From a phage, in the sequence record PZ445527.1: a stretch of 64,000 nucleotides of DNA, one strand, 5' to 3'. Both the position numbers and the translations under genes were made by a program. Under the pieces are notes generated by a model that made no database searches, was not told the origin of the DNA, and was given only the letters and a program-made list of their open reading frames with translations. Below are positions 28,679 through 55,088 of the stretch, in pieces. Each line of letters opens with the position of its first letter. Position 1 is the stretch's first letter.

Positions 28679-29155
28679 TCACATCTCGGCAAGTTCTTGC
28701 TCAGTAATAACAGTATTACATAATGCGTCAACTTCTTCATTACCTCTAATACCTGAGTGCCCTTTAACCTTAATAAAGGTAGGGTTAGTATTATGAAAAT
28801 TAATATACTGTTGGGTTAGTTTAAATGCTTCTTGCCATAGTTCTAAATTGAGAGGAGCTTCACCATCTCCCTTCTTCCAGCCTTTCTTCTGCCAAGACCA
28901 CATCCAGCTTTCCATACCATTTTTACAGTATGCAGAATCAGTGTAGATTATAACTGGACGTTTATCATTCTTAGTAGCCCAGCGCAGAACTTCAACAATA
29001 GCTGTAAGTTCCATTTCATTGTTTGTGGTTTTTGGACTGAAACCCGACTTAGAACCCAAACGTTCGTCATTAGGATCATAAACTACGAAACCCCAAGCAC
29101 CTAAACCAGGATTACCTTTACAAGCCCCATCTGTATATATATGAAATGTACTCAT
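28679..29155 (-). CDS. rnhA: ribonuclease H
   Basis: 158 aa; IYTDGAC...EMELTAI...YTDSAY...HSG...EVD typical RNase HI catalytic motifs. Confidence 0.85.
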   Translation of the reverse strand: MSTFHIYTDGACKGNPGLGAWGFVVYDPNDERLGSKSGFSPKTTNNEMELTAIVEVLRWATKNDKRPVIIYTDSAYCKNGMESWMWSWQKKGWKKGDGEAPLNLELWQEAFKLTQQYINFHNTNPTFIKVKGHSGIRGNEEVDALCNTVITEQELAEM

Positions 29156-29694
29156 TTATTAAGTTCCTCTAAAATAGGGGGTGGTTTTGTGGAATCAAAA
29201 GTTTCTATAACAGCGTTTTTACCGTGTAACTGTAGACGAAGTTCATTGGCACATTGAATGGCGGATTCTAGGTCTTTGTACTCAAAATAACCACCATATA
29301 CTGACTTTTTATCGGAGTCTCTAACATGTACTTGCCATTTCTGATTTTGCCTATTCCAGCTAATTCCTAGATAACCAGATTTACTTCTAGTGGTTTTATT
29401 TCTCTGATTCTCTTGGTAATTAGATTTCCTGAGATTAATCCATCTATTATCATCTCGTATGCGGTTTATGTGGTCTACCATTTCCGGTAGATAGCCTTCC
29501 ATATAGAGAAATGCTAGCTGATGCGCATAATATGGATTTTTATCCACGGATATAGTTATATATCCGTCTTTTCTTAGATGACCAGCAATACTTCCTATTT
29601 TTCCGTTTCTACCCCTGACTCCCGTCCTTCTAGTAAATATTCCGGTATCGGGGTTATAATCGAATAGTTCTTTTAATCTTTCTTGTGTGATCAT
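29152..29694 (-). CDS. HNH homing endonuclease (HNH plus AP2-like)
   Basis: 180 aa; N-terminus MITQERLKELFDYNPDTGIFT shared with ORFs at 5368 and 55085. Confidence 0.8.
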   Translation of the reverse strand: MITQERLKELFDYNPDTGIFTRRTGVRGRNGKIGSIAGHLRKDGYITISVDKNPYYAHQLAFLYMEGYLPEMVDHINRIRDDNRWINLRKSNYQENQRNKTTRSKSGYLGISWNRQNQKWQVHVRDSDKKSVYGGYFEYKDLESAIQCANELRLQLHGKNAVIETFDSTKPPPILEELNK

Positions 29695-32755: not shown

Positions 32756-33262
32756 TTATAAACTATCAAGCTCCAATAGTTTAGCATCACGCCATTCTAT
32801 AGCATCCTCTAATTCTTTAAATGTTTTTGTATATTTTACGCCTTTACGAGCTATCTGGACTTGATATGATCCACTAGCTTTTTGATGAATATTTTTAATA
32901 CCTAGCTTATTGTCTTTATGCGCCCCGACATTCTTTCCGTTACTGAATCTATCAGAAGCTACTAGGTTAATAGCTCTATTATCATGTCGTATTCTATTAT
33001 CGTGGTCTACTTCAGGTGGCAGATACCCATGAATTTTAGCAAAGATTACCCTATGGGCTAAGTAGGGGTATCCTTTAATATTTAATACTATATATCCTGT
33101 AGATTTATCTAAGGAGCCTGCTGGTTTTCCGGCATATTTGGTATTAAATGTTTTATTATCTCTAGGTCTATGAGTCAATATTCCAGTATATGGATCATAA
33201 TCAAATAATTTAGCTACCTCTAGATGATCTTCTAATGTTTTTGACATAATTATAATTTCCAA
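32756..33262 (-). CDS. HNH homing endonuclease
   Basis: 168 aa; AHRVIFAKIHGYLPPEVDHDNRIRHDNRAINL; sits between nrdA and nrdB. Confidence 0.75.
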   Translation of the reverse strand: MEIIIMSKTLEDHLEVAKLFDYDPYTGILTHRPRDNKTFNTKYAGKPAGSLDKSTGYIVLNIKGYPYLAHRVIFAKIHGYLPPEVDHDNRIRHDNRAINLVASDRFSNGKNVGAHKDNKLGIKNIHQKASGSYQVQIARKGVKYTKTFKELEDAIEWRDAKLLELDSL

Positions 33263-33311: not shown

Positions 33312-36300
33312 TTATAAGGTGCAGCCACCTGAAGAACATCCTGTAGTTTCTCCAGCTCCTCCACCATTCGCAGTGTTAAAGTTAGCATAATACCAGGTTT
33401 TTATACCATACTTAACCGCAGTCATAAAGTCACGAACTACTACTGGGCCAGGGATGATTTCATTCTCGAATTTAGAGTAATCATAATACATCTGGAAACT
33501 TGATGACTGACTCAAGAATTTTTGGTAAACGGCGTTCCACTTGATCCACTCAATACGATCTACATCATAGGCCAGTTTATAGCTCATGAGAGTATCCCAA
33601 TCAGTTGCACCTGGGGCAATTGCAATTACTTTATTCACTGCACTACCCTTGATAGATACAATCTTACGAGGTGGTTCAATAGAGTTAGTAACGCCTAACA
33701 GAACAGAGGAACTTTCTCCCGGCATCTGCGCAGTCAGAACAGAGTTACGCATACCGTATTTCAGAATGTCTGCACGCAGAGATTCCCAATCCATTTCTAG
33801 ACCTACGGATACCAGCTCATCAACAGTTTTCTTATACGTGTCGATTACCAGAATTCCTTTGGATGGTTTAGTACGATTAAACCATTCACATGCACCTTGT
33901 TCTTTAGCCAGACGTACAGAGGCTTTATGTAGGAAGTAAGACAGTTTTTCAGCTTCACGATGAATCCAGTTACGTGCTTCAACGCCTTCATAAGCCAAAC
34001 CTTCCGCCGCCATTGCACCTGCTGCGTTCATCAGACCAATACCAACATTACGACGTTTCTTAGCCGTATATTCCATAGTTGGGAACGGATAATCCTGAAT
34101 TTCAATGATGGTATCAACGAATTTCAGGAGGATGTAGCAAGTTTTCTCCCACTCAGCCAGAGATTCCATGCGTCCTAGTACAACACCACCTAAGTTACAC
34201 AGAGATACTTCACCAATATCCTCTGGCTTCATTTGATCAAGCTGCTCTTTTGTCTTATACAGCTCTGTGATATGATGGAACGGGCGTGTAGGCTGAGTAA
34301 TTTCTACACAGTTACCCGCTAAAATGCCATTAAATACACCTAAGTTTAATTTAGGTTCTGTAAAGCAATAAGTATCACTAATACGACCAGTAAACTCAAC
34401 GTTAGTTACAGTTACAAAACGGGTTGCGTCTCTATTGGGGCGTGTTAGGTTTAAGAGTTTCTCTTTATCCAAAGAGAGTCCTAAATCTTTAAGTTTCCAG
34501 AAGCCACTACTCCCCACAATAAGCCTACTAGTCTCCTTGCAGTGGTATAGTTTACTAGTACCAGTACCATCTGGTAACTCGTGGTCACCTTCTTTGCGTC
34601 CTAAAATAATCTTGCTAGTAACCCCCAATTCTAGTAACAAATCCTTCACTTTACTTAGAAAATCAGGCTCTGCCGAAGCAACCACAATACTAGGAGTTGT
34701 GCCATTTTTCTGTATGCAGCCATCTGCATCTAAATATCCCTCTAACCATTTGATACGGCTATCAATAGTATACTCTGGGCCAGGTACAAAATACTTCGGC
34801 ATTAAATCAGACTTAACAATATAGCTCAGTCTACCTGTGCTGTCCAGTAATCCACTTCCCTGAATTTCTGCGTCAATTTTATCCACTAATGGTAGTTTGC
34901 CACCTTTTTCATAGAAGTACAGCTTAGGTTCTCCATGTCTTCCATAAGTTCCATCTCCAGTGAAGAAACCGTTAGTATAAGGAGATTTTAGTACCATATT
35001 TCCATGATCTACAATAGGATTACTAAATTTAGGCATTTTCATACCTACTTGCAAGTCTACTGCTCGTACCTCTTCTAGCCCCTGTTTGAAAGAGGTACGA
35101 CGATCCTCTCTGACATATTTGGGCTGGTGGTAGAACTTATGATAAAGAGTAGATTCAATAGTAGATCCATCAGAGAATGTGATTTTTATCAACTCCTGAG
35201 CTTCCCCAGTTTTAGTAGGGATAACTGTTGACCATTCTTGTCCGTTCCAAATCTCTACTTCTTTACCAACTAAATCAATAATCTCTATGTTACCATTTTT
35301 GGTTAAAATTTTTGTTTCTGGAGCTACACAAAGGTTTGTCATACGGATTGGATCAAGGAAGTTACCGTGACGATTAGATTCCCCGATGTGGTGCGCATAC
35401 ATACGTCCTGTTTCCATTCGGATACGTAGCCAAGTATCTAGGATTTCTTTTGCAGAGACTTTAGGAGCTGCTGGAACTGTTTTTCCTTCGTGGTCGATCT
35501 TTGTAAGAGATGCCACACGTTTCTCCGCTGCCACGTAGATTTCTTCAAATTTAGCCTCGTCATCACTATAAAACGCTTCATGAACTTCTGGAGCATAGAA
35601 GTATGACATTAGCGTAATATCTTCATTTTTCAGATAACGTTTTAACAAAAGATTGTTGAAGCTCAGAGAATAATCCATCTTATCAATTTTATTCTCGTCT
35701 GTAGCACGTTGTTGCTTAACCTGCATCAACTGAATGATTTCAGGGTCAAAGTATGGATAAGACACTGTAGCAGAACCACCACGAGTTTGCTGAGTATTGG
35801 CCTTTACTGAGCGATCAATGTGTCGATAATATGGCAGTTTTCCGGAATGCGGGAATGCCCCATTTCGCACCGGATCAGCAATTGATCTGCTTTCAAGATG
35901 ATACCCGATTCCCGCTCTGGCTGCAACCATTTTGAAGACGATGTGCTCGGCGGTGTCGATTGAATCCAACGTGTCAGTGGAATCCACGAGGCAGCAACTA
36001 GCAAATCCACGGTCACTAGAGCGCAGACCAACCAGTGGCGGCGTAGGAACGTTGATTTTGTGGAGCGACATTGCGTTGTAGAGGTCGATTGCATCTAGAA
36101 TTGTCCAGTTAGGTTGAGATAACATCGCCATTGCCATACCCATGTAGGCAAACTGCGGAGTTTCATAAATTTCACCAGTGGCTATGTTGCGGCGGGAATA
36201 CTTATCAAAGAACTGCTTCAGTCCACCACTAGTAAAAAGACGGTCACGATCATGGTCGATAACCTGATTCAGAGCTTCAAATTGCTCATCGGTAATCCAT

Positions 36301-36659
36301 GCACTCATGTCTTCCCATGCACCTACGCTAACCATGTGGTCATGGAAGAAGCGCAGAGAAGGTGGTTCGAAGGAATCATAAAGGCGTTTACGCATTTGCG
36401 CAAGACGTAATTCCTTTGCTGGCACATCGTATGCTGGGTTATCTTTGATAAGGCTTTCAGCAGCCTTAATTAATGCGTCCATCAGAGTGTCGGAATCTAC
36501 AACCCCTTTAGGCAGAGTTTTTTGAGCAGCCATAGTAATGGCTGACCAACTTACATCAACTGTTTTGCAACCATACTCTGCCCAACCATTGAGTTTTTCA
36601 GGAGCAAAGTCTTCTACAGTACCGTCACGTTTAATTACTTTTTCAATGCGATGGCTCAT
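33312..36659 (-). CDS. nrdA: ribonucleotide reductase large subunit with in-frame intein
   Basis: ORF 33312..36764; start placed at MSHRIEKVIKRDG Met by comparison with NrdA N-termini; class Ia R1 motifs throughout; about 340 extra residues inserted at the NLC active-site motif. Confidence 0.9.
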   Translation of the reverse strand: MSHRIEKVIKRDGTVEDFAPEKLNGWAEYGCKTVDVSWSAITMAAQKTLPKGVVDSDTLMDALIKAAESLIKDNPAYDVPAKELRLAQMRKRLYDSFEPPSLRFFHDHMVSVGAWEDMSAWITDEQFEALNQVIDHDRDRLFTSGGLKQFFDKYSRRNIATGEIYETPQFAYMGMAMAMLSQPNWTILDAIDLYNAMSLHKINVPTPPLVGLRSSDRGFASCCLVDSTDTLDSIDTAEHIVFKMVAARAGIGYHLESRSIADPVRNGAFPHSGKLPYYRHIDRSVKANTQQTRGGSATVSYPYFDPEIIQLMQVKQQRATDENKIDKMDYSLSFNNLLLKRYLKNEDITLMSYFYAPEVHEAFYSDDEAKFEEIYVAAEKRVASLTKIDHEGKTVPAAPKVSAKEILDTWLRIRMETGRMYAHHIGESNRHGNFLDPIRMTNLCVAPETKILTKNGNIEIIDLVGKEVEIWNGQEWSTVIPTKTGEAQELIKITFSDGSTIESTLYHKFYHQPKYVREDRRTSFKQGLEEVRAVDLQVGMKMPKFSNPIVDHGNMVLKSPYTNGFFTGDGTYGRHGEPKLYFYEKGGKLPLVDKIDAEIQGSGLLDSTGRLSYIVKSDLMPKYFVPGPEYTIDSRIKWLEGYLDADGCIQKNGTTPSIVVASAEPDFLSKVKDLLLELGVTSKIILGRKEGDHELPDGTGTSKLYHCKETSRLIVGSSGFWKLKDLGLSLDKEKLLNLTRPNRDATRFVTVTNVEFTGRISDTYCFTEPKLNLGVFNGILAGNCVEITQPTRPFHHITELYKTKEQLDQMKPEDIGEVSLCNLGGVVLGRMESLAEWEKTCYILLKFVDTIIEIQDYPFPTMEYTAKKRRNVGIGLMNAAGAMAAEGLAYEGVEARNWIHREAEKLSYFLHKASVRLAKEQGACEWFNRTKPSKGILVIDTYKKTVDELVSVGLEMDWESLRADILKYGMRNSVLTAQMPGESSSVLLGVTNSIEPPRKIVSIKGSAVNKVIAIAPGATDWDTLMSYKLAYDVDRIEWIKWNAVYQKFLSQSSSFQMYYDYSKFENEIIPGPVVVRDFMTAVKYGIKTWYYANFNTANGGGAGETTGCSSGGCTL
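34311..35330 (-). mobile_element. intein with LAGLIDADG homing endonuclease inside nrdA
   Basis: Insert begins with Cys (CVAPET), ends GILAGN followed by +1 Cys of extein NL-CVEITQP; contains GFFTGDGTYG and LEGYLDADGC motifs. Confidence 0.8.
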
Positions 36660-36803
36660 TTGGTTTTCCTTTTTATAGTTATCAGGATTTAAGGAATATT
36701 CTACATTATTATTGGTCATTAGGCAAATAAAATTTTCTGATAGAAAAGGCCCGAGTATTTTCATACCCAGGCCCTCTGTGTTGTCAGTCTAGTTTTTGGC
36801 CAC

Positions 36804-37002: not shown

Positions 37003-37755
37003 TTACACCTTCCCCATGTCTTTAAAAATATCGTAGAATGCTTTAGACTCAGCAGAACGAACGTTATCAATTAATTCGATCATTGAGAATGGAGCATTTT
37101 CATATTTCTCATAAACTTCCATAAGAAGTGCTAGACCTGAGTCACCTTTAATGTCTTTCTGAGCTATATCCCCGCAGATAATCAAACGGCAGTCTTGTCC
37201 TACACGAGTTAGGAGACAAACCATTGCCTCAACGGAAATATTCTGAGCTTCATCGACAATTACATAGGAGTTGTTGAAAGTTCTGCCACGAGCATGTTCT
37301 ATAGCCAAAAATTTAATTTTCTGACGTTCGACATATCCCTTATAGGCATGATCACCGATGGCCCATTTCATACCATCAGCTATTGGCTCCAACCAAGGCT
37401 CTAGCTTTTCGGCTAGATCACCAGGAAGCATACCAAGAGACTTACCTAGAGGTTCATTAGGACGTACGAGAATCACTTGCTCAATATCTGAGTGAATGTC
37501 TACGAGTTCCTGAGCTGCAAGAACGGACGGAATAAAGGTTTTACCAGTACCTGGCTCACCGATACCCACAGTCACTGTGTTGTTCTTGATCATATTGATA
37601 TATGATTTTTGCTCGCGGTTTTTACCTACTAGGGATTTAGCAACTGGGTTAGCGTAATCATTAGAAAAATCAGCCTGAATTACGTTATTCTCATATTTGT
37701 TGCCACGCTTTCTTGAACCATTGCGGTTCTCTCTTTTTTGACGTGCTTTTCCCAT
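37003..37755 (-). CDS. phoH: PhoH-like ATPase
   Basis: Walker A GEPGTGKT and VIVDEAQN Walker B; start at MGKARQ Met after AGGAGTG RBS. Confidence 0.85.
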   Translation of the reverse strand: MGKARQKRENRNGSRKRGNKYENNVIQADFSNDYANPVAKSLVGKNREQKSYINMIKNNTVTVGIGEPGTGKTFIPSVLAAQELVDIHSDIEQVILVRPNEPLGKSLGMLPGDLAEKLEPWLEPIADGMKWAIGDHAYKGYVERQKIKFLAIEHARGRTFNNSYVIVDEAQNISVEAMVCLLTRVGQDCRLIICGDIAQKDIKGDSGLALLMEVYEKYENAPFSMIELIDNVRSAESKAFYDIFKDMGKV

Positions 37756-37830
37756 AAATAACACTCCTATAGTGTACTTCGCTTCTAACAGAGGATCAAC
37801 AAAAGATCTTGTTTATCAACTTACAAATAT

Positions 37831-37859
37831 ATTATACCAGTATATACAGTAAAAAGCAA
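37831..37859 (-). promoter_or_regulatory. sigma70-type promoter upstream of phoH
   Basis: TTGCTT, 17 nt spacer, TATAAT. Confidence 0.6.
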
Positions 37860-38030
37860 CTACAATTTTAAATAAGCCTATGATATTGCATTTAAATAAA
37901 AAATTTGCTTGCTTATAGAGGTAGAAATATGATACTAGATAATCATTTATTTATATGTAAAAATACTATGCTGTATAGCATCAATAAAAATTGATAAAAA
38001 TCAAAAGTCAAATAGTATTAGAAAAATGTA
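37860..38030. promoter_or_regulatory. AT-rich divergent intergenic region with palindromes at the strand switch
   Basis: No ORF; AT-rich; contains palindrome ATGCTGTATAGCAT; lies between outward-facing promoters. Confidence 0.35.
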
Positions 38031-38031
38031 G

Positions 38032-38060
38032 TTGACGTATGGGGTGGAATTATGTATAAT
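38032..38060 (+). promoter_or_regulatory. sigma70 promoter
   Basis: TTGACG, 17 nt spacer, TATAAT, then AAGGAG RBS and ATG at 38082. Confidence 0.7.
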
Positions 38061-38081
38061 ATGTGAATTAAGGAGAATTTA

Positions 38082-38747
38082 ATGGTAAGAAAGAAAATAA
38101 CTACAGAAGATGTGAACTTAGCACTTGCTCCCAGAGGAATAATTATGCTAAGCACGTATATATCAGCTAAATCCAATGCTATATTTAAGTGCTCTAATGG
38201 GCATAGTTGGGAGGCTAGAGTAGATAATGTAAAAGGTGGGAGAGGTTGCCCTTATTGTGCTAGTCGTACTTTAGATCTTAAAGAGGTAAATGAATCCTTA
38301 GCTGCTCGTGGAATAAAGATGGAAGGTAAATACATCAATTCTAAGAGTAAAATTATGTTCAGCTGTGAGAATGATCATAGGTGGGAGTCTACCCTTGATA
38401 GTGTTAGAAATCATAATTCTGGTTGTCCTATATGTTTATTAGAGAAGGATAATTATCCTACTAACGTATATATTTTAGTAAGTAGTATGGGAACCAAAAT
38501 AGGGATGTCTAGCAGAACTAAAGATAGACTCAGAGATATTAAAACTTCTTCTAACATACATGATTTAAAAATATTTAAGGAATATAGCTTTTCAGATAGA
38601 TCAAAAGCTGTGCGTATTGAAAGAGAAGCCCATTTACAGTTTAAGGAATATAATTGTCAGTACAAAGATTTTGATGGTGCTACAGAATTTTTTAGTATTG
38701 AGCCAGAAGTAGTAGCAAGGTTTATTGAGGAAATAATTAATGAATAA
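38082..38747 (+). CDS. zinc-ribbon plus T5orf172/GIY-YIG-like nuclease-domain protein (putative homing endonuclease)
   Basis: 221 aa; two CxxGHxW...CPxC zinc-ribbon repeats and C-terminal region VYILVSS...RLRDIKTS...REAHLQFKEY resembling the T5orf172 domain. Confidence 0.55.
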   Translation: MVRKKITTEDVNLALAPRGIIMLSTYISAKSNAIFKCSNGHSWEARVDNVKGGRGCPYCASRTLDLKEVNESLAARGIKMEGKYINSKSKIMFSCENDHRWESTLDSVRNHNSGCPICLLEKDNYPTNVYILVSSMGTKIGMSSRTKDRLRDIKTSSNIHDLKIFKEYSFSDRSKAVRIEREAHLQFKEYNCQYKDFDGATEFFSIEPEVVARFIEEIINE

Positions 38748-40587
38748 AGATGAATTGATTAGAAACTGCAAAGAAATTATTGAGGGTTCTGCTGATGAAG
38801 AGCTTCTCTTTAATAATGCGAATAAACCCTCTGAGCGTTTCCCTACACAAAGGGATATGCTTGCAGGGGAATTGAGTAAATATCTGATTCTAGAAGAAAT
38901 GCCAATTCAGATTCGAAATGCTCATATGATTGGAGATATTCATTTCCATGATGCTGACTATGCTGCATTAGGCATGACTAACTGTTGCCTAGTAGCCCTG
39001 GAAGATATGTTGAAAAATGGTATGAAAGTTGGTAATGCTGAAATTAGTACACCAAATTCTATTACTACTGCGGCGGCTATTACTGCTCAGATTATCACTC
39101 AGGTTAGCTCCCATCAGTATGGTGGTACTTCTGTAGATCGCCTTGATGAAGTATTAGCCCCTTATGTTCGTAAGTCCTATGATAAAAATCATGCGTTTGC
39201 AAAACGTTGGACTAAGGATGAAGCTAAAGCATCTGTAATGGCTACGGAGATGACTGAAAAAGAAGTCTATGACGCTTGCCAGGGTTTAGAATATGAAATC
39301 AATACCATGTTCAACTCTAACGGTCAGAGTCCATTTATTACCTTTGGTTTTGGTCTAGGAACTTCTTGGGAAGCACGTCTAGTACAGAAAGCAATACTGA
39401 AAGTACGCATGGATGGTTTAGGTATCAATAAACGTACAGCTATCTTCCCGAAACTGGTATTTGTACTTCGTGATGGCGTAAATATGAAACCAGGGGATGT
39501 TAATTATGACATCAAGAAGTTAGCTATGAAATGTACTGCTGAACGTATGTATCCAGATTATATCAGCTATGATAAGGTTGTGGAAGTTACTGGAGACTAT
39601 AAAGTTTCTATGGGCTGCCGTTCATTCCTAGCTGCTGCAGAAGATGGTGAAACTGCCGGTCGTAATAACTTAGGTGTTGTTTCTGTAAACTTGCCTAGAA
39701 TTGCTATCGAAGCTGAAGGAAATATTGACCTATTCTTTGATTTGCTTGAGCTACGTGTAGATACAGCATTAAAAGCGTTGGAGTGGAGAGTTGATCGCTT
39801 AAAATACATTCAAGCTAAAGCTGCACCCATCCTCTATATGTCAGGAGCCTTTGGATTACGCTTAGGGCCTGATGAATATGTATTCGATCATTTCTATAAC
39901 CGTGCTTCTGTATCTCTAGGGTATATTGGTTGCCATGAAATGCTACAGTTCATGTTTGGCAAAGATGTAGACACAATGTCCGAGACCTGCATCAAGTTTG
40001 TTCAGCGTGTATTGCAGTACATGCGGGATAGAGTCGATCAGAAGAAGGAAGAAACTAAGTTAGGTTATAGCCTGTATGCTACACCATCAGAGTCCCTATG
40101 TGATCGCTTTTGTCGTCTAGACCGTGAATATTTCCCGGAGCATGAAGATATTCTGTCCAAAGGATACTACACTAACTCTCACCACCTTGATGTGGAACGT
40201 AAAGTTGCCCCTAACGTGAAATTTGATTATGAATCTAACTTTACTCCGATTGCTTCTGGTGGGTGTATCTCTTATGTAGAACTACCAGATATGAAACGAT
40301 TCCCGGATGCACTGGAATGGGTTATTAATTATGCTGCTAGTAAGGTTCATTACTTCGGTATTAATACTCCAGTGGATTCCTGTGGTAAATGTGGATTCTT
40401 AGGTGAAACAGTAGCATCCGAAGATGGATTCAAGTGCCCTATCTGTGGTAATCATGACCCTGAAACTCTTGAAGTAACTCGTCGAGTTTGTGGGTATCTT
40501 GGAAATCCAGGTGCTCGTCCGTTTAACCCAGGAAAACAACATGAGGTTATGGGCAGGGTGAAACATCAGGATATTCGAGCTAAATAA
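38740..40587 (+). CDS. nrdD: anaerobic ribonucleoside-triphosphate reductase (class III)
   Basis: 615 aa; C-terminal glycyl-radical motif RVCGYLG; size similar to phage NrdD. Confidence 0.85.
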   Translation: MNKDELIRNCKEIIEGSADEELLFNNANKPSERFPTQRDMLAGELSKYLILEEMPIQIRNAHMIGDIHFHDADYAALGMTNCCLVALEDMLKNGMKVGNAEISTPNSITTAAAITAQIITQVSSHQYGGTSVDRLDEVLAPYVRKSYDKNHAFAKRWTKDEAKASVMATEMTEKEVYDACQGLEYEINTMFNSNGQSPFITFGFGLGTSWEARLVQKAILKVRMDGLGINKRTAIFPKLVFVLRDGVNMKPGDVNYDIKKLAMKCTAERMYPDYISYDKVVEVTGDYKVSMGCRSFLAAAEDGETAGRNNLGVVSVNLPRIAIEAEGNIDLFFDLLELRVDTALKALEWRVDRLKYIQAKAAPILYMSGAFGLRLGPDEYVFDHFYNRASVSLGYIGCHEMLQFMFGKDVDTMSETCIKFVQRVLQYMRDRVDQKKEETKLGYSLYATPSESLCDRFCRLDREYFPEHEDILSKGYYTNSHHLDVERKVAPNVKFDYESNFTPIASGGCISYVELPDMKRFPDALEWVINYAASKVHYFGINTPVDSCGKCGFLGETVASEDGFKCPICGNHDPETLEVTRRVCGYLGNPGARPFNPGKQHEVMGRVKHQDIRAK

Positions 40588-40594
40588 GCTAATC

Positions 40595-40630
40595 AGCCAG
40601 GTTGCTAGTCGACCTGGCTTTTATTTTATT
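40595..40630 (+). terminator. rho-independent terminator after nrdD
   Basis: Hairpin AGCCAGGT...ACCTGGCT followed by TTTTATTTTATTT. Confidence 0.7.
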
Positions 40631-40686: not shown

Positions 40687-41067
40687 ATGAAAGTAAAACC
40701 CTATATAGTTGAGTCTACGTGCGGGAGTTTCCATCTAGGAGTGGATGATATTGCAGAAGCTATCTTTGCTGCTACAGGTGATTACTCCCATATAGGGGGT
40801 GCTGCATACCCCACCGTTATTGGTGATTGGGCGGAAACAAATCTAGATGTATCACCATATAGCTCACATTGCTTGTTTGATGAAGACAGAGATGAGGTAA
40901 AATGTAATCTTGAATTTGTATACAATAGAGTACTAAAAGTCTATCAACACAGTGTTGAGGGATATGAAGATATTACTGGAAGTATTAAACAATATCTTAA
41001 AGATGTATACTCTAATTTTTCTGATGAAGACCTGGAAACAGTTGCAGTGGAGTTTAATAATGACTAA
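40687..41067 (+). CDS. hypothetical protein
   Basis: 126 aa ORF with RBS GAGAGGAG. Confidence 0.5.
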   Translation: MKVKPYIVESTCGSFHLGVDDIAEAIFAATGDYSHIGGAAYPTVIGDWAETNLDVSPYSSHCLFDEDRDEVKCNLEFVYNRVLKVYQHSVEGYEDITGSIKQYLKDVYSNFSDEDLETVAVEFNND

Positions 41068-41293
41068 GAATGTGAAACACCTTAAATATCGCTTAATCTA
41101 TAACGGACGTATGGAAACTGAAGAGCTAGCTCAATTAGCTATTAACTCTAGTGAGGTTATGGTGCGTGCGCTAGCAATTGAAAAGTTGCGTGCTTCTTAT
41201 GAAAGCCGTATTATGCAACTGGAGGAAACCCTTTATGGGCTTCTTGAATCAGAAGCTAAAAGCAACCCAGAGGATAGACCTACTAAGCAATAA
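41060..41293 (+). CDS. hypothetical protein
   Basis: ORF 40952..41293; ATG at 41060 overlaps upstream stop (ATGACTAA), giving 77 aa. Confidence 0.45.
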   Translation: MTKNVKHLKYRLIYNGRMETEELAQLAINSSEVMVRALAIEKLRASYESRIMQLEETLYGLLESEAKSNPEDRPTKQ

Positions 41294-41347
41294 AAGGTAT
41301 GCATATTATGGAATAATTTTACCCCAAAACATTATCGAAGGATTTAA

Positions 41348-42187
41348 GTGAGGAACTGTACAGTGCGTAGATTAATTATTATTAGCGGTGCAGGTTTGAG
41401 CGTTGAAAGTGGTGTACGAGCCTTCCGTACTGATACTGCTAGTGGTAAAGCATTGTGGGATGATTATGACTTAGAAGAGGTATGTAATATTCATGCCTTT
41501 CGTGGTAATTTTTATCATAAAACCCATATGTTTTACAACAAGCGTCGTGAAGAGCTAAAAACTATTGAACCCAATCTTGCGCATCTTCGTATTGGTGAGT
41601 GGTATAAACAATACCCAGGTCAAGTAGTAAACTTGACTACTAACGTCGATGACCTTATTGAGCGTGCTGGCGTTCCGCATAGTGACATTCTACATATTCA
41701 TGGGTATTTAAAAGAGGTTGTTGTAGCTGACAGCTACAATAGCAGTAATAAACGAGTTATTGATGTTGGGTATAGCTCTATTGACCCAGATGATTATAAA
41801 TGGGTTAAACCTAATGTAATCTTCTTTGGTGAGCATGCTCCAGCGTACGCAGAAATGTACAATATTTTTGATGGTATTACCAGTCAAGATATGATCGTTG
41901 TAGTTGGTTGCTCTAACCAAGTAATTAACTTCTACTGGGAATTATTCCCTGTTCTTAATTTGACTGCTGCCAAATTAATGGTAGTTAACTACTATGATAG
42001 TGCCCTAGCGACAGAGCCAGGCTATCAAGGTATGACTCGTAGTGAGATGTACCAGCTGGAAGAACGCGGTATCCCTTACTGGAGTAAAGGGGCTGTAGAT
42101 GCCTTCAGTGACCCTGATTTTATTACTCGTGTAGAAGCTCATCTAGAGGGTAGACCTTATATGCCGGGGAAACAAATATGTCCATAA
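41348..42187 (+). CDS. Sir2-like NAD-dependent protein (deacetylase/ADP-ribosyltransferase family)
   Basis: 279 aa; Sir2-type Rossmann motif GAGLSVESGVRAFR, VIFFGE and VVVGCS segments; no obvious Cys4 zinc module. Confidence 0.65.
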   Translation: MRNCTVRRLIIISGAGLSVESGVRAFRTDTASGKALWDDYDLEEVCNIHAFRGNFYHKTHMFYNKRREELKTIEPNLAHLRIGEWYKQYPGQVVNLTTNVDDLIERAGVPHSDILHIHGYLKEVVVADSYNSSNKRVIDVGYSSIDPDDYKWVKPNVIFFGEHAPAYAEMYNIFDGITSQDMIVVVGCSNQVINFYWELFPVLNLTAAKLMVVNYYDSALATEPGYQGMTRSEMYQLEERGIPYWSKGAVDAFSDPDFITRVEAHLEGRPYMPGKQICP

Positions 42188-47185: not shown

Positions 47186-47402
47186 AAAATGGGAAACAAG
47201 GAAGCTTCCAGTAAAAGAACGTAAAGTTCCTGTTTATGATACTTCGGAAAAGCTATGTAGGGTGGTTCCTGCTAGACTAGCTGGCATCCCTAACATATCC
47301 GAGTGGTTACTTAAACAACGGAGGACTAACGTATCTCTTCGCATAGGGTTTGAGTTAGATAAAGTATATGCTGAACTTTCTTCTTTGCTCAAGGAACAAT
47401 AA
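47169..47402 (+). CDS. small basic protein
   Basis: ORF 47160..47402 fills the gap between the large protein and the HNH gene; ATG at 47169 after AGGTG. Confidence 0.35.
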   Translation: MTVKNKKWETRKLPVKERKVPVYDTSEKLCRVVPARLAGIPNISEWLLKQRRTNVSLRIGFELDKVYAELSSLLKEQ

Positions 47403-47974
47403 TGTTTATAAGAATTCCTAAATTTCCTGACTATGCAGTGAATGAAAATGGAGAGGTGTATTCTTTTCTCTCCTACAAGTTTCTTACTCCAGGTCAAAAT
47501 ACTGCTGGGTACTTACAAGTTAATTTAATGAAGGACGGTCCCCCTATAAATATGAGGGTGCATAGGTTAGTAGCCTATTGTTTTGGACTACTTCCTGGGT
47601 TAGAATCAGAATTGGTAGTAGACCATATAAATGATGATAAGTTAGATCCTAGACTATCTAACTTGCAGGTATTAACCTACAGAGCTAATGCAATAAAATT
47701 TCATAATAAAAATTGGAGAGAACATCCAGATTTCCTAGTAGAAATTAAGAAATTAGAAAGTATGGGCATAACTAAAGCAGCTGCATCCTATAGGCGCAAG
47801 GCTATGCTTAAATACATTGTGGCTGTTCCCTCTAGTGATACTCTAACCTTAGAATTAATAGAATCTACATATCAGAAAACCAATTCTTGGAGAAAAACTG
47901 CTAGAGTGCTTGGATTTAAAAGCGCCCCAGCTATTCTTTATAGATATAACAAGCTGAAAGCAGCTTCTTTATAA
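47402..47974 (+). CDS. HNH homing endonuclease
   Basis: 190 aa; HRLVAYCFGLLPGLESELVVDHINDDKLDPRLSNLQ HNH motif. Confidence 0.7.
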   Translation: MFIRIPKFPDYAVNENGEVYSFLSYKFLTPGQNTAGYLQVNLMKDGPPINMRVHRLVAYCFGLLPGLESELVVDHINDDKLDPRLSNLQVLTYRANAIKFHNKNWREHPDFLVEIKKLESMGITKAAASYRRKAMLKYIVAVPSSDTLTLELIESTYQKTNSWRKTARVLGFKSAPAILYRYNKLKAASL

Positions 47975-53615: not shown

Positions 53616-55088
53616 ATGACCTTGTTTAACGTGCAAGCTGTAGTGTTGAAGATGCTTCTAGCTTCCGAACAGAAGCAAATAGCATTGGAAACATTCTCAA
53701 AACTGCATAAAGATCATTTTAATGACGCTTTCTCCTCAATTTACCAAGCCGTCCAGAATTATTATAAAAAATATAACGCAATGCCGTCCATTGACGCACT
53801 TATGCTTGAGGCCAATAGGAACGCCCGCCTTTCTCAAGCTCTAGTCGTCTTAGCTAACACTCAAATTCCAGAAGTTAGCATGGAACAGGCACTTGAAGTC
53901 CTAGAGGCCGAGTATACACAGGATTTATTCCTGAAGCTTCTAGAAACAGACGTGCTTCAAGATTTAACAATGCTGGATCAGGGAGAAATTCTTAACCGAG
54001 TTGCCTCCCTTCACTTAAAATTAGAAGAGAAAGTAACGAATACTGGAAAAGTATTCAACGCAGATAACATGCGTATTTTCCAGAGAGAAGAAGATACCAA
54101 ACTGAACTTAATCGCTCTTGGTATTTGTAATGAGTTCGACGCTCAAATTGGTTTAGCTCGCACAGAAACGTTACTGCTTGGTGGTTGGCGTGGTACTGGT
54201 AAATCCATTATCTGTTCAAACATACAGGTTCAGCAATATTTGAATGGAGATATTGCTCCATACTTCTCAATTGAGATGAAAGAACATGAAGTATTTAGAC
54301 GTAATCTAGCCATGTTAGCTGGTGTATCAGCACTAGCAATGCGTAATAATACTCTAGAAGGCGCAGCTCTGTTGAGATTAGCCAGAACTAGAGCTAGGAT
54401 GTTTAATGGTGGTGAAGAGCTTTTCGATAACTTCGTTAAACAGTACACAATGGCTAAGATGAGTGATTTCTACGATATGGAAAGTAAGCTAATAGAAGGA
54501 TATGAGCTACATACTCCTATGATTATTGTTTATGATCCTGAGCTGTCTATTACAACAGTTGACGTAGAATTAAATAAATTAGTTGCTAGATATGGGGATA
54601 AAGTTACAGTAGCTTTACTGGACTATATTAACCAAACCCGACTTCCAGACTCTAAAACCATTGATATGTATGACTGGAAAGAACAGATGGTTGTTAGCTC
54701 GTCTTTCAAATCTATCTGCCAGAAACATAACGTGGCTGGTGTAGCCCCTTACCAGATTGATCAAGATGGTAGAACACGTATGTCAAAGGGGATTCTTGAT
54801 TCCGCAGACATGGCTGCTAATCTTAATGCTGCAAAAGCTGATAATGGTCAAGGTGCTATTATGTTTGACTTCGTTAAGACTCGTTCTTCTGATAGCGTGA
54901 AGTTTATGCCTAAAATGAACTGGGAAACCCTACGGATGGATAACACTACCAACCTAGCAATGGAAGATATATCTCAAATGGAAGCTGAGTTCGTTATCCC
55001 TATTGAGAAGGATAAGCCGGCTCAATCTAAACGTGCTAAGAAAGACAAAGCTGAAAATTCAACAGGTGAACAGGCCAGCGATATATGA
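53616..55088 (+). CDS. DnaB-like replicative helicase
   Basis: ORF 53556..55088; start at MTLFNVQ Met 4 nt after AAGGAG; Walker A GWRGTGKS. Confidence 0.8.
   Translation: MTLFNVQAVVLKMLLASEQKQIALETFSKLHKDHFNDAFSSIYQAVQNYYKKYNAMPSIDALMLEANRNARLSQALVVLANTQIPEVSMEQALEVLEAEYTQDLFLKLLETDVLQDLTMLDQGEILNRVASLHLKLEEKVTNTGKVFNADNMRIFQREEDTKLNLIALGICNEFDAQIGLARTETLLLGGWRGTGKSIICSNIQVQQYLNGDIAPYFSIEMKEHEVFRRNLAMLAGVSALAMRNNTLEGAALLRLARTRARMFNGGEELFDNFVKQYTMAKMSDFYDMESKLIEGYELHTPMIIVYDPELSITTVDVELNKLVARYGDKVTVALLDYINQTRLPDSKTIDMYDWKEQMVVSSSFKSICQKHNVAGVAPYQIDQDGRTRMSKGILDSADMAANLNAAKADNGQGAIMFDFVKTRSSDSVKFMPKMNWETLRMDNTTNLAMEDISQMEAEFVIPIEKDKPAQSKRAKKDKAENSTGEQASDI

Follow-up and report, generated by a model that had tools for sequence, protein, structure and literature searches.

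A probable free-standing homing endonuclease gene of the T5orf172 family between phoH and nrdD in T5-like phages

Which kind of gene has settled in front of the anaerobic ribonucleotide reductase gene nrdD in some T5-like phages, and does it serve nrdD or its own spread? We have studied this question in a stretch of 64,000 nucleotides from a phage (sequence record PZ445527.1), which we will call the window. It belongs to a T5-like phage (Tequintavirus). The 4.5-kb stretch around the gene has matches in 461 phage records, most of which belong to Tequintavirus phages of Salmonella and Escherichia and to relatives; T5 itself is about 95% identical to the window over this stretch. A preliminary description of the same DNA had suggested either a homing endonuclease or a regulator. 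The evidence presented below makes a free-standing homing endonuclease gene (HEG) quite probable, one which belongs to the T5orf172 branch of the GIY-YIG nuclease superfamily.

We will start with the gene itself. As the preliminary description stated, it leads the plus-strand genes and runs into the start of nrdD: it is the first gene on the plus strand past the divergent phoH, and its stop codon TAA (38745..38747) overlaps the nrdD start (ATG at 38740) by 8 nt. All features of the region are given in Table 1. The promoter-like site aligns with the position of the nrdD promoter in T5 (TTGACA...TATAAT in T5 and SP15) and is a candidate promoter for both genes. At the other end a terminator is annotated at the equivalent place in T5 and AKFV33. 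The HEG and nrdD seem to be transcribed together as a single unit of two genes, diverging from phoH. The ORF is intact in all five other copies of the same allele (allele A) which we translated, it gives a full-length alignment in a single piece (tblastn) in 21 phage records, and its dN/dS is 0.09–0.16 for most pairs, which corresponds to purifying selection. For these three reasons its reality is far beyond chance, and the purifying selection indicates that it is not a decaying relic in the allele-A genomes. No paralogue was found elsewhere in the window.

Table 1. Position of the features of the phoH–nrdD region in the window
Feature	Position	Strand	Remarks
phoH-like gene	37003..37764	-	Pfam PhoH, E 1.1e-61; conserved left flank of the insertion site
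Whole cassette with the candidate HEG	37915..38754	+	840 bp by alignment with T5; replaces 255 bp of T5 (L001 2414..2668, 53,667–53,921 in AY587007)
Promoter-like site TTGACG-17-TATAAT	38032..38060	+	Agrees with the consensus at 11 of 12 positions; no better sigma-70-like site in the region
Shine-Dalgarno AAGGAG of the candidate HEG	38070..38075	+	6 nt upstream of the ATG; read from the sequence
Candidate HEG (ORF)	38082..38747	+	ATG start, 221 aa; two zinc-finger repeats and T5orf172 nuclease domain
Zinc-finger repeat 1	38097..38270	+	About aa 6–63; Pfam DUF4379 and CapR; predicted ligands C37, H41, C56, C59
Zinc-finger repeat 2	38271..38447	+	About aa 64–122; Pfam DUF4379 and CapR at aa 80–118; predicted ligands C95, H99, C115, C118
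T5orf172/MUG113 nuclease domain	38457..38744	+	About aa 126–221; GIY-YIG fold (predicted)
Shine-Dalgarno GAGGA of nrdD	38727..38731	+	Within the 3' end of the HEG coding region, 8 nt before the nrdD ATG
nrdD, anaerobic ribonucleotide reductase	38740..40587	+	615 aa, right flank; Pfam NRDD, E 5.1e-172
Intrinsic-terminator-like hairpin and T-run	40595..40629 (hairpin 40595..40619)	+	3' of nrdD; ends the putative HEG–nrdD unit

The protein has four Pfam matches (DUF4379, CapR, T5orf172 and MUG113), all of them above the curated cut-offs. Two of them lie in the C-terminal region, for which a resemblance to T5orf172 had already been proposed. The T5orf172 model (PF10544) matches aa 118–218 over positions 4–100 of its 101 (42.5 bits with a cut-off of 20, E 9.6e-11), and MUG113 (PF13455) gives 45.0 bits with a cut-off of 22.3 (E 1.7e-11); both thresholds of these families of the GIY-YIG clan are thus exceeded. 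The protein also falls in PHROG 681, "endonuclease" (E 6.8e-49). The GIY-YIG model of Pfam itself finds no match in the sequence, which belongs to the T5orf172/MUG113 branch. A sequence search of the PDB gave only matches at chance level (GBP5 with E 0.0045, antibody chains), and no NCBIfam model matches the protein. The fold predicted for the C-terminal domain is that of the GIY-YIG nucleases SLX1, I-TevI and UvrC, an alpha/beta domain in which helices lie on the sides of a three-stranded sheet. This prediction used a shallow alignment of 8 rows, since the word-indexed protein search gave only 7 homologues.

The catalytic residues of GIY-YIG enzymes are the Tyr of GIY, the Tyr of YIG, an Arg in helix 1, a metal-binding Glu and an Asn. 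Across 21 diverse homologues of our protein Y130, K139, G141, R149, E180, G199 and E202 show no or almost no variation. They appear to lie where the GIY Tyr, the YIG Gly and the catalytic Arg and Glu are expected. The position of the YIG Tyr is occupied by Lys139, and a Lys is typical of the T5orf172 family. The counterpart of E75 of I-TevI may be E180, E182 or E202. Another protein with this domain, Odn (Gp88) of phage ICP1, cuts DNA in vitro, and mutation of its conserved Glu abolishes cleavage (PMC8263062).

The N-terminal half is formed by two repeats of about 58 aa, 47% identical to one another. Pfam recognizes two stretches of DUF4379, a probable treble clef zinc finger (53.1 bits with a cut-off of 24.5, E 3.6e-14), and two of the CapR homology domain (35.1 bits with a cut-off of 24.2, E 1.5e-8). 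The preliminary description had read both repeats as CxxGHxW...CPxC. The presence of two zinc repeats holds, and so does the motif of repeat 1, which is C37-x2-G-H41-x-W43...C56-P-x-C59; repeat 2 departs from it in the window, where its sequence is C95-x2-D-H99-x-W101...C115-P-x-C118, that is CxxDHxW. Among homologues C37, G40, H41, C56, P57 and C59 are invariant in the first repeat, as are C95, W101, C115 and C118 in the second one. The ligand pattern of the DUF4379/CapR modules, C-x3-H...C-P-x-C, is thus found in a repeated module. The AF2 model of repeat 1 consists of a helix, a beta-hairpin and a helix, with a pLDDT of about 90 over aa 11–50. Both repeats are predicted to be treble-clef zinc-finger DNA-binding modules of the DUF4379/CapR type.

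This module is very widespread. An exhaustive HMMER search (E <= 0.001) found it in 13,640 representative clusters; as many as 12 copies form an array, and the proteins with such arrays reach about 1600 aa. In most cases the stretch which gives the best match has no nuclease domain; the clusters are found mainly through the zinc-finger repeat.

We now turn to the site where the gene is found. In T5 phoH and nrdD are neighbours without a gene between them, as they are in SP15 and SCF, the other two genomes without the gene which we inspected directly. On the phoH side (37100..37850) T5 and the window are 96–100% identical. The window remains T5-like up to TTGCTT (37909..37914) and identity with T5 resumes from TTGATTAG (38755). 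The 255 bp of T5 which are replaced hold its nrdD promoter, the leader and the first 14 codons of nrdD. The cassette has a GC content of 0.26–0.36, as compared with about 0.39–0.43 in the flanking genes. In every genome with a gene at this site the N-terminus of NrdD is 10 codons shorter and reads MNKDELIRNC..., instead of MNRNDELKYKEIQSLIRNC... in T5.

The presence or absence of the gene varies at this single, well-defined site among relatives which are otherwise collinear. In total the region is held by 461 records, a figure which, like all our counts, refers to records and includes some RefSeq/GenBank duplicates. The allele of the window, allele A, is found in 21 records with 94–98% nucleotide identity, always at the phoH–nrdD site. 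Allele B, of the AKFV33 type with 222 aa, is found in 5 records. Allele C, of the Shivani type with 287 aa and three zinc modules, is present at full length in 27 records, and a remnant with only its last 172 nt in another 8. The comparison of relatives had been suggested together with the homing hypothesis: T5 lacks the gene, and in 351 of the 461 records there is a match to at least the promoter and 5' end of the T5-type nrdD, which represent the allele without the gene (counted by megablast; most of the matches span just about half of the 241-nt query). This T5-type promoter and 5' end is absent from the genomes which bear the HEG. By difference about 49 records are left unclassified.

The proteins of alleles A, B and C are 47–48% identical. 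Between alleles the zinc-finger parts show 41–43% identity, the nuclease parts 54–57%. In the DNA the best conserved part is formed by the last 150 nt or so of the gene, with 71–73% as compared with 43–61%. The remnant is best seen in HildyBeyeler: an internal deletion took the zinc fingers and half of the nuclease domain, and what is left is the promoter, the first codons and, at the end close to nrdD, the last 172 nt of allele C. As judged from its sequence, this remnant is a decay stage of the HEG.

Paralogues are found on the other side of nrdD in some phages. The Salmonella phage KKP_3831 has a T5orf172 endonuclease gene, 44.7% identical, directly downstream of nrdD (L011 3501..4187). The group of chee130_1, saus132 and poul149 has the same downstream paralogue, and the upstream site is empty in all of them. 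Depending on the phage, nrdD is thus flanked by this gene family on either side.

The gene also moves independently of its flanks. NG_A1 (Tequintavirus) and rutana (Epseptimavirus) share a HEG which is 99.5% identical, with 91.0% identity in phoH and 87.9% in nrdD. When NG_A1 is compared with NR01 the values are 98.8% for the HEG and 64.4% for nrdD. These segment identities demonstrate a discordance between gene and flanks, as found in horizontal spread. Allele A abuts two types of nrdD, and the breakpoint lies exactly at the nrdD ATG. The left flank is also patchy: in positions 37800..37912 the other allele-A genomes share an A-type haplotype and the window has the T5-type haplotype, which fits conversion tracts of variable length.

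Over its full length the DNA of the two nrdD types of T5-like phages is only about 64% identical, within neighbourhoods which are otherwise 95–99% identical (VAH1, Shivani, NR01, HildyBeyeler). The switch from one type to the other occurs at the nrdD ATG and close to the terminator of the gene, and has the appearance of the replacement of a whole-gene allele, bounded by the endonuclease gene.

The domains and predicted fold, the polymorphism of presence, absence and remnants, the movement independent of the flanks and the purifying selection make up the classical signature of a free-standing HEG. The proposal of a free-standing homing endonuclease in the preliminary description is thus well supported by the domains, by the polymorphism of the site and by the discordance with the flanks. 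We infer that the protein cuts DNA and homes in the following way. In a mixed infection with a relative which lacks the gene, the two tandem zinc-finger modules would bind a long DNA site in the phoH–nrdD interval. The tethered GIY-YIG-type domain would then cut the gene-less genome near the bound site. Recombinational repair using the HEG-bearing genome would transfer to the cut genome the 840-bp cassette and a varying amount of its flanks. Such an insertion would be tolerated because it is intergenic and restores what it displaces: it has a strong promoter in the place of that of nrdD and a ribosome-binding site for nrdD in its own 3' end, and its overlap with the nrdD start would join the two genes in one transcription unit.

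Where would the target be? Immediately to the right of the cassette the window does not differ from T5, and immediately to the left it is T5-like, so that the target must overlap the 255 bp replaced, a deduction which holds only if the phage protects its own genome by a difference in sequence. Such protection is usual for HEGs. The target most likely overlaps the T5-type nrdD promoter, the leader and the first 14 codons or so of the gene-less allele, rather than the body of nrdD. We also considered a target in the conserved part of nrdD which codes for NNANKPSERFPTQRD, and rejected it: this stretch is identical in the phage of the window and in T5.

Other explanations of the gene have to be weighed against homing. 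In principle, ordinary phage recombination at a variable intergenic spot could also have produced its distribution, without any activity of the protein. The nuclease might instead be mainly a weapon, which cuts the DNA of co-infecting rival phages, of a satellite or of a host element and does not copy itself. The homing endonucleases of T-even phages exclude the markers of related phages, which is in line with such a role. The T5orf172 nuclease Odn has exactly this role (PMC8263062), and our protein has a match to the candidate defence family PADLOC PDC-S57. It is a single match with E 4.3e-4, too weak for filing the protein as a defence gene. We consider a weapon unlikely, as the signature of homing is present: the insertion point is the same in different backbones, with near-identity across diverged flanks. 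Furthermore Odn has a RepA_N domain borrowed from its target, whereas the zinc-finger array of our protein is the one standard in the HEG family. One and the same cut leads in any case both to the exclusion of rivals and to homing, so that the difference is one of emphasis rather than a true alternative.

The zinc fingers could also belong to a domesticated DNA-binding regulator, which binds the promoter or leader of the HEG–nrdD unit, or another phage promoter, and controls transcription, the nuclease being inactive or secondary. They match the CapR homology domain; CapR has its origin in this HEG family and has been proven to repress transcription (PMC8096241). The gene also comes first in the nrdD transcription unit, with its own promoter in the position of the nrdD promoter. 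There is also a precedent in the autorepression of I-TevI. However CapR lacks what our protein keeps, a T5orf172 domain with conserved Tyr, Arg and Glu under purifying selection; most relatives do not have the gene, yet they express nrdD; and a selfish element would better account for three diverged alleles and deletion remnants at a single site. A regulator, the other possibility raised at the start, is thus unlikely as the main role of a protein which retains a conserved nuclease domain, although a side role as a moonlighting autorepressor, beside homing, is possible. It is still far less probable that the protein assists NrdD as a structural or activating partner, for instance as a zinc-ribbon subunit which the reductase needs for its function. 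Only the 8-nt overlap and the zinc-binding motifs speak for such a partner, while T5, SP15 and SCF have an intact nrdD without the gene, and the 5' end of the T5-type nrdD is matched in 351 of the 461 records. One HEG allele is linked to two nrdD types which are only 64% identical, the protein has no match to NrdG or any reductase family, and the paralogue of KKP_3831 sits downstream of nrdD instead. The distribution and the linkage to two nrdD types refute this partner, which the preliminary description had named as the finding that would speak against homing if the gene were universally conserved and had no nuclease domain; a nuclease domain is matched and the conservation is not universal, so that the homing endonuclease reading stands.

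How does this gene compare with known systems? Barth, Dunham and Seed (2023) described T5orf172 HEGs with repeated zinc fingers of the CapR/DUF723/DUF4379 type which are enriched in T5-like phages; ribonucleotide reductase genes are present in 33% of their neighbourhoods, and the HEGs lie at boundaries of genetic exchange (PMC10448857). Our gene shares with them (gp165 and gp174 of ICP1 and others, among them those of T5-like phages) the N-terminal zinc-finger repeats and the C-terminal T5orf172 domain, as well as the T5-like lineage, the ribonucleotide reductase neighbourhood and the position at a boundary of genetic exchange, in this case the nrdD ATG. It differs in its particular phoH–nrdD locus, with three alleles about 47% identical and remnants, of which we have found no description. 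Our literature searches found no study of this locus. In the paper on the AKFV33 genome its allele (ORF100) is called only a predicted DNA-binding protein. In GenBank several records of close homologues are labelled "T5orf172 domain protein", "putative (homing) endonuclease" or "GIY-YIG nuclease family protein". The gene is probably a HEG of a class already described for T5-like phages.

Odn of ICP1 has a catalytic domain of the same family, in which the conserved Arg and Glu are retained. However it uses a RepA_N domain for DNA binding instead of zinc-finger repeats, and it is an anti-parasite weapon directed against the replication origin of a satellite (PMC8263062). CapR of PLE has a homologous zinc-finger DNA-binding module. 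It differs from our protein, which keeps its nuclease, by the absence of a nuclease domain, and it represses phage capsid genes (PMC8096241).

The T-even phages have free-standing homing endonucleases of the GIY-YIG and HNH types, such as the Seg proteins and MobE, which is found between nrdA and nrdB; I-TevI is the structural archetype. In I-TevI and the Seg proteins the nuclease is at the N-terminus. Compared with these enzymes our protein has the reverse order of domains and other DNA-binding modules, and the YIG Tyr is replaced by Lys.

The locus offers a clean and well-sampled natural case of the HEG life cycle in T5-like phages, with an empty site, three competing alleles and deletion remnants. 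Its importance is modest. It also places an endonuclease gene exactly on a recombination boundary, with an important gene as its neighbour. Those who engineer or annotate phages find here the reason why the start, the N-terminus and the promoter of nrdD differ among T5-like phages, and a likely nuclease with modular zinc fingers and a long recognition site.

A wider picture of the site may also be drawn, which we consider speculative and rather doubtful as a whole. The phoH–nrdD site might be a contested landing pad, where three alleles with two or three zinc modules replace one another and the empty site. The cassette might have become an obligatory module for the expression of nrdD, with a promoter and a ribosome-binding site which are retained even in the remnants, so that the HEG would be hard to lose and could act as an autoregulator. 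It might also be the agent which swaps whole nrdD alleles, a suggestion which derives from the junction of allele A with two nrdD types 64% identical, with the breakpoint at the nrdD ATG.

The window contains other selfish elements. The class Ia ribonucleotide reductase large subunit gene nrdA (33312..36764, minus strand, 1150 aa) has an intein at about aa 478–817, with a match to the intein N-terminal splicing model and a LAGLIDADG_3 domain in aa 672–758. The nrdA product of T5 has about 776 aa and no intein; nrdA of Shivani is annotated "contains intein splice site". There are also three HNH_3 ORFs: 32756..33262 (minus strand) between nrdB and nrdA, 29152..29694 (minus strand) between RNase H and thymidylate synthase and 47402..47974 (plus strand) after a gene similar to that of an origin-binding protein. 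With the T5orf172 gene the number of selfish-nuclease elements rises to at least five, all within about 20 kb of genes for nucleotide metabolism and replication. The context formed by the three HNH_3 ORFs and the nrdA intein was counted in favour of a homing endonuclease.

Downstream of the nrdD terminator there is another variable cassette (40687..41347), which is a mosaic among relatives. Over positions 40700..41000 identity to the window is 28–43% in YJin, VAH1, NR01 and Shivani, as compared with 80–90% in T5, SP15, AKFV33 and NG_A1. It includes a 126-aa ORF of PHROG 11748. It is followed by a gene for a Sir2-family protein of 279 aa (41348..42187, plus strand; Pfam SIR2, E 2e-24; PHROG 2162), found shortly after nrdD as is "cobB" in T5.
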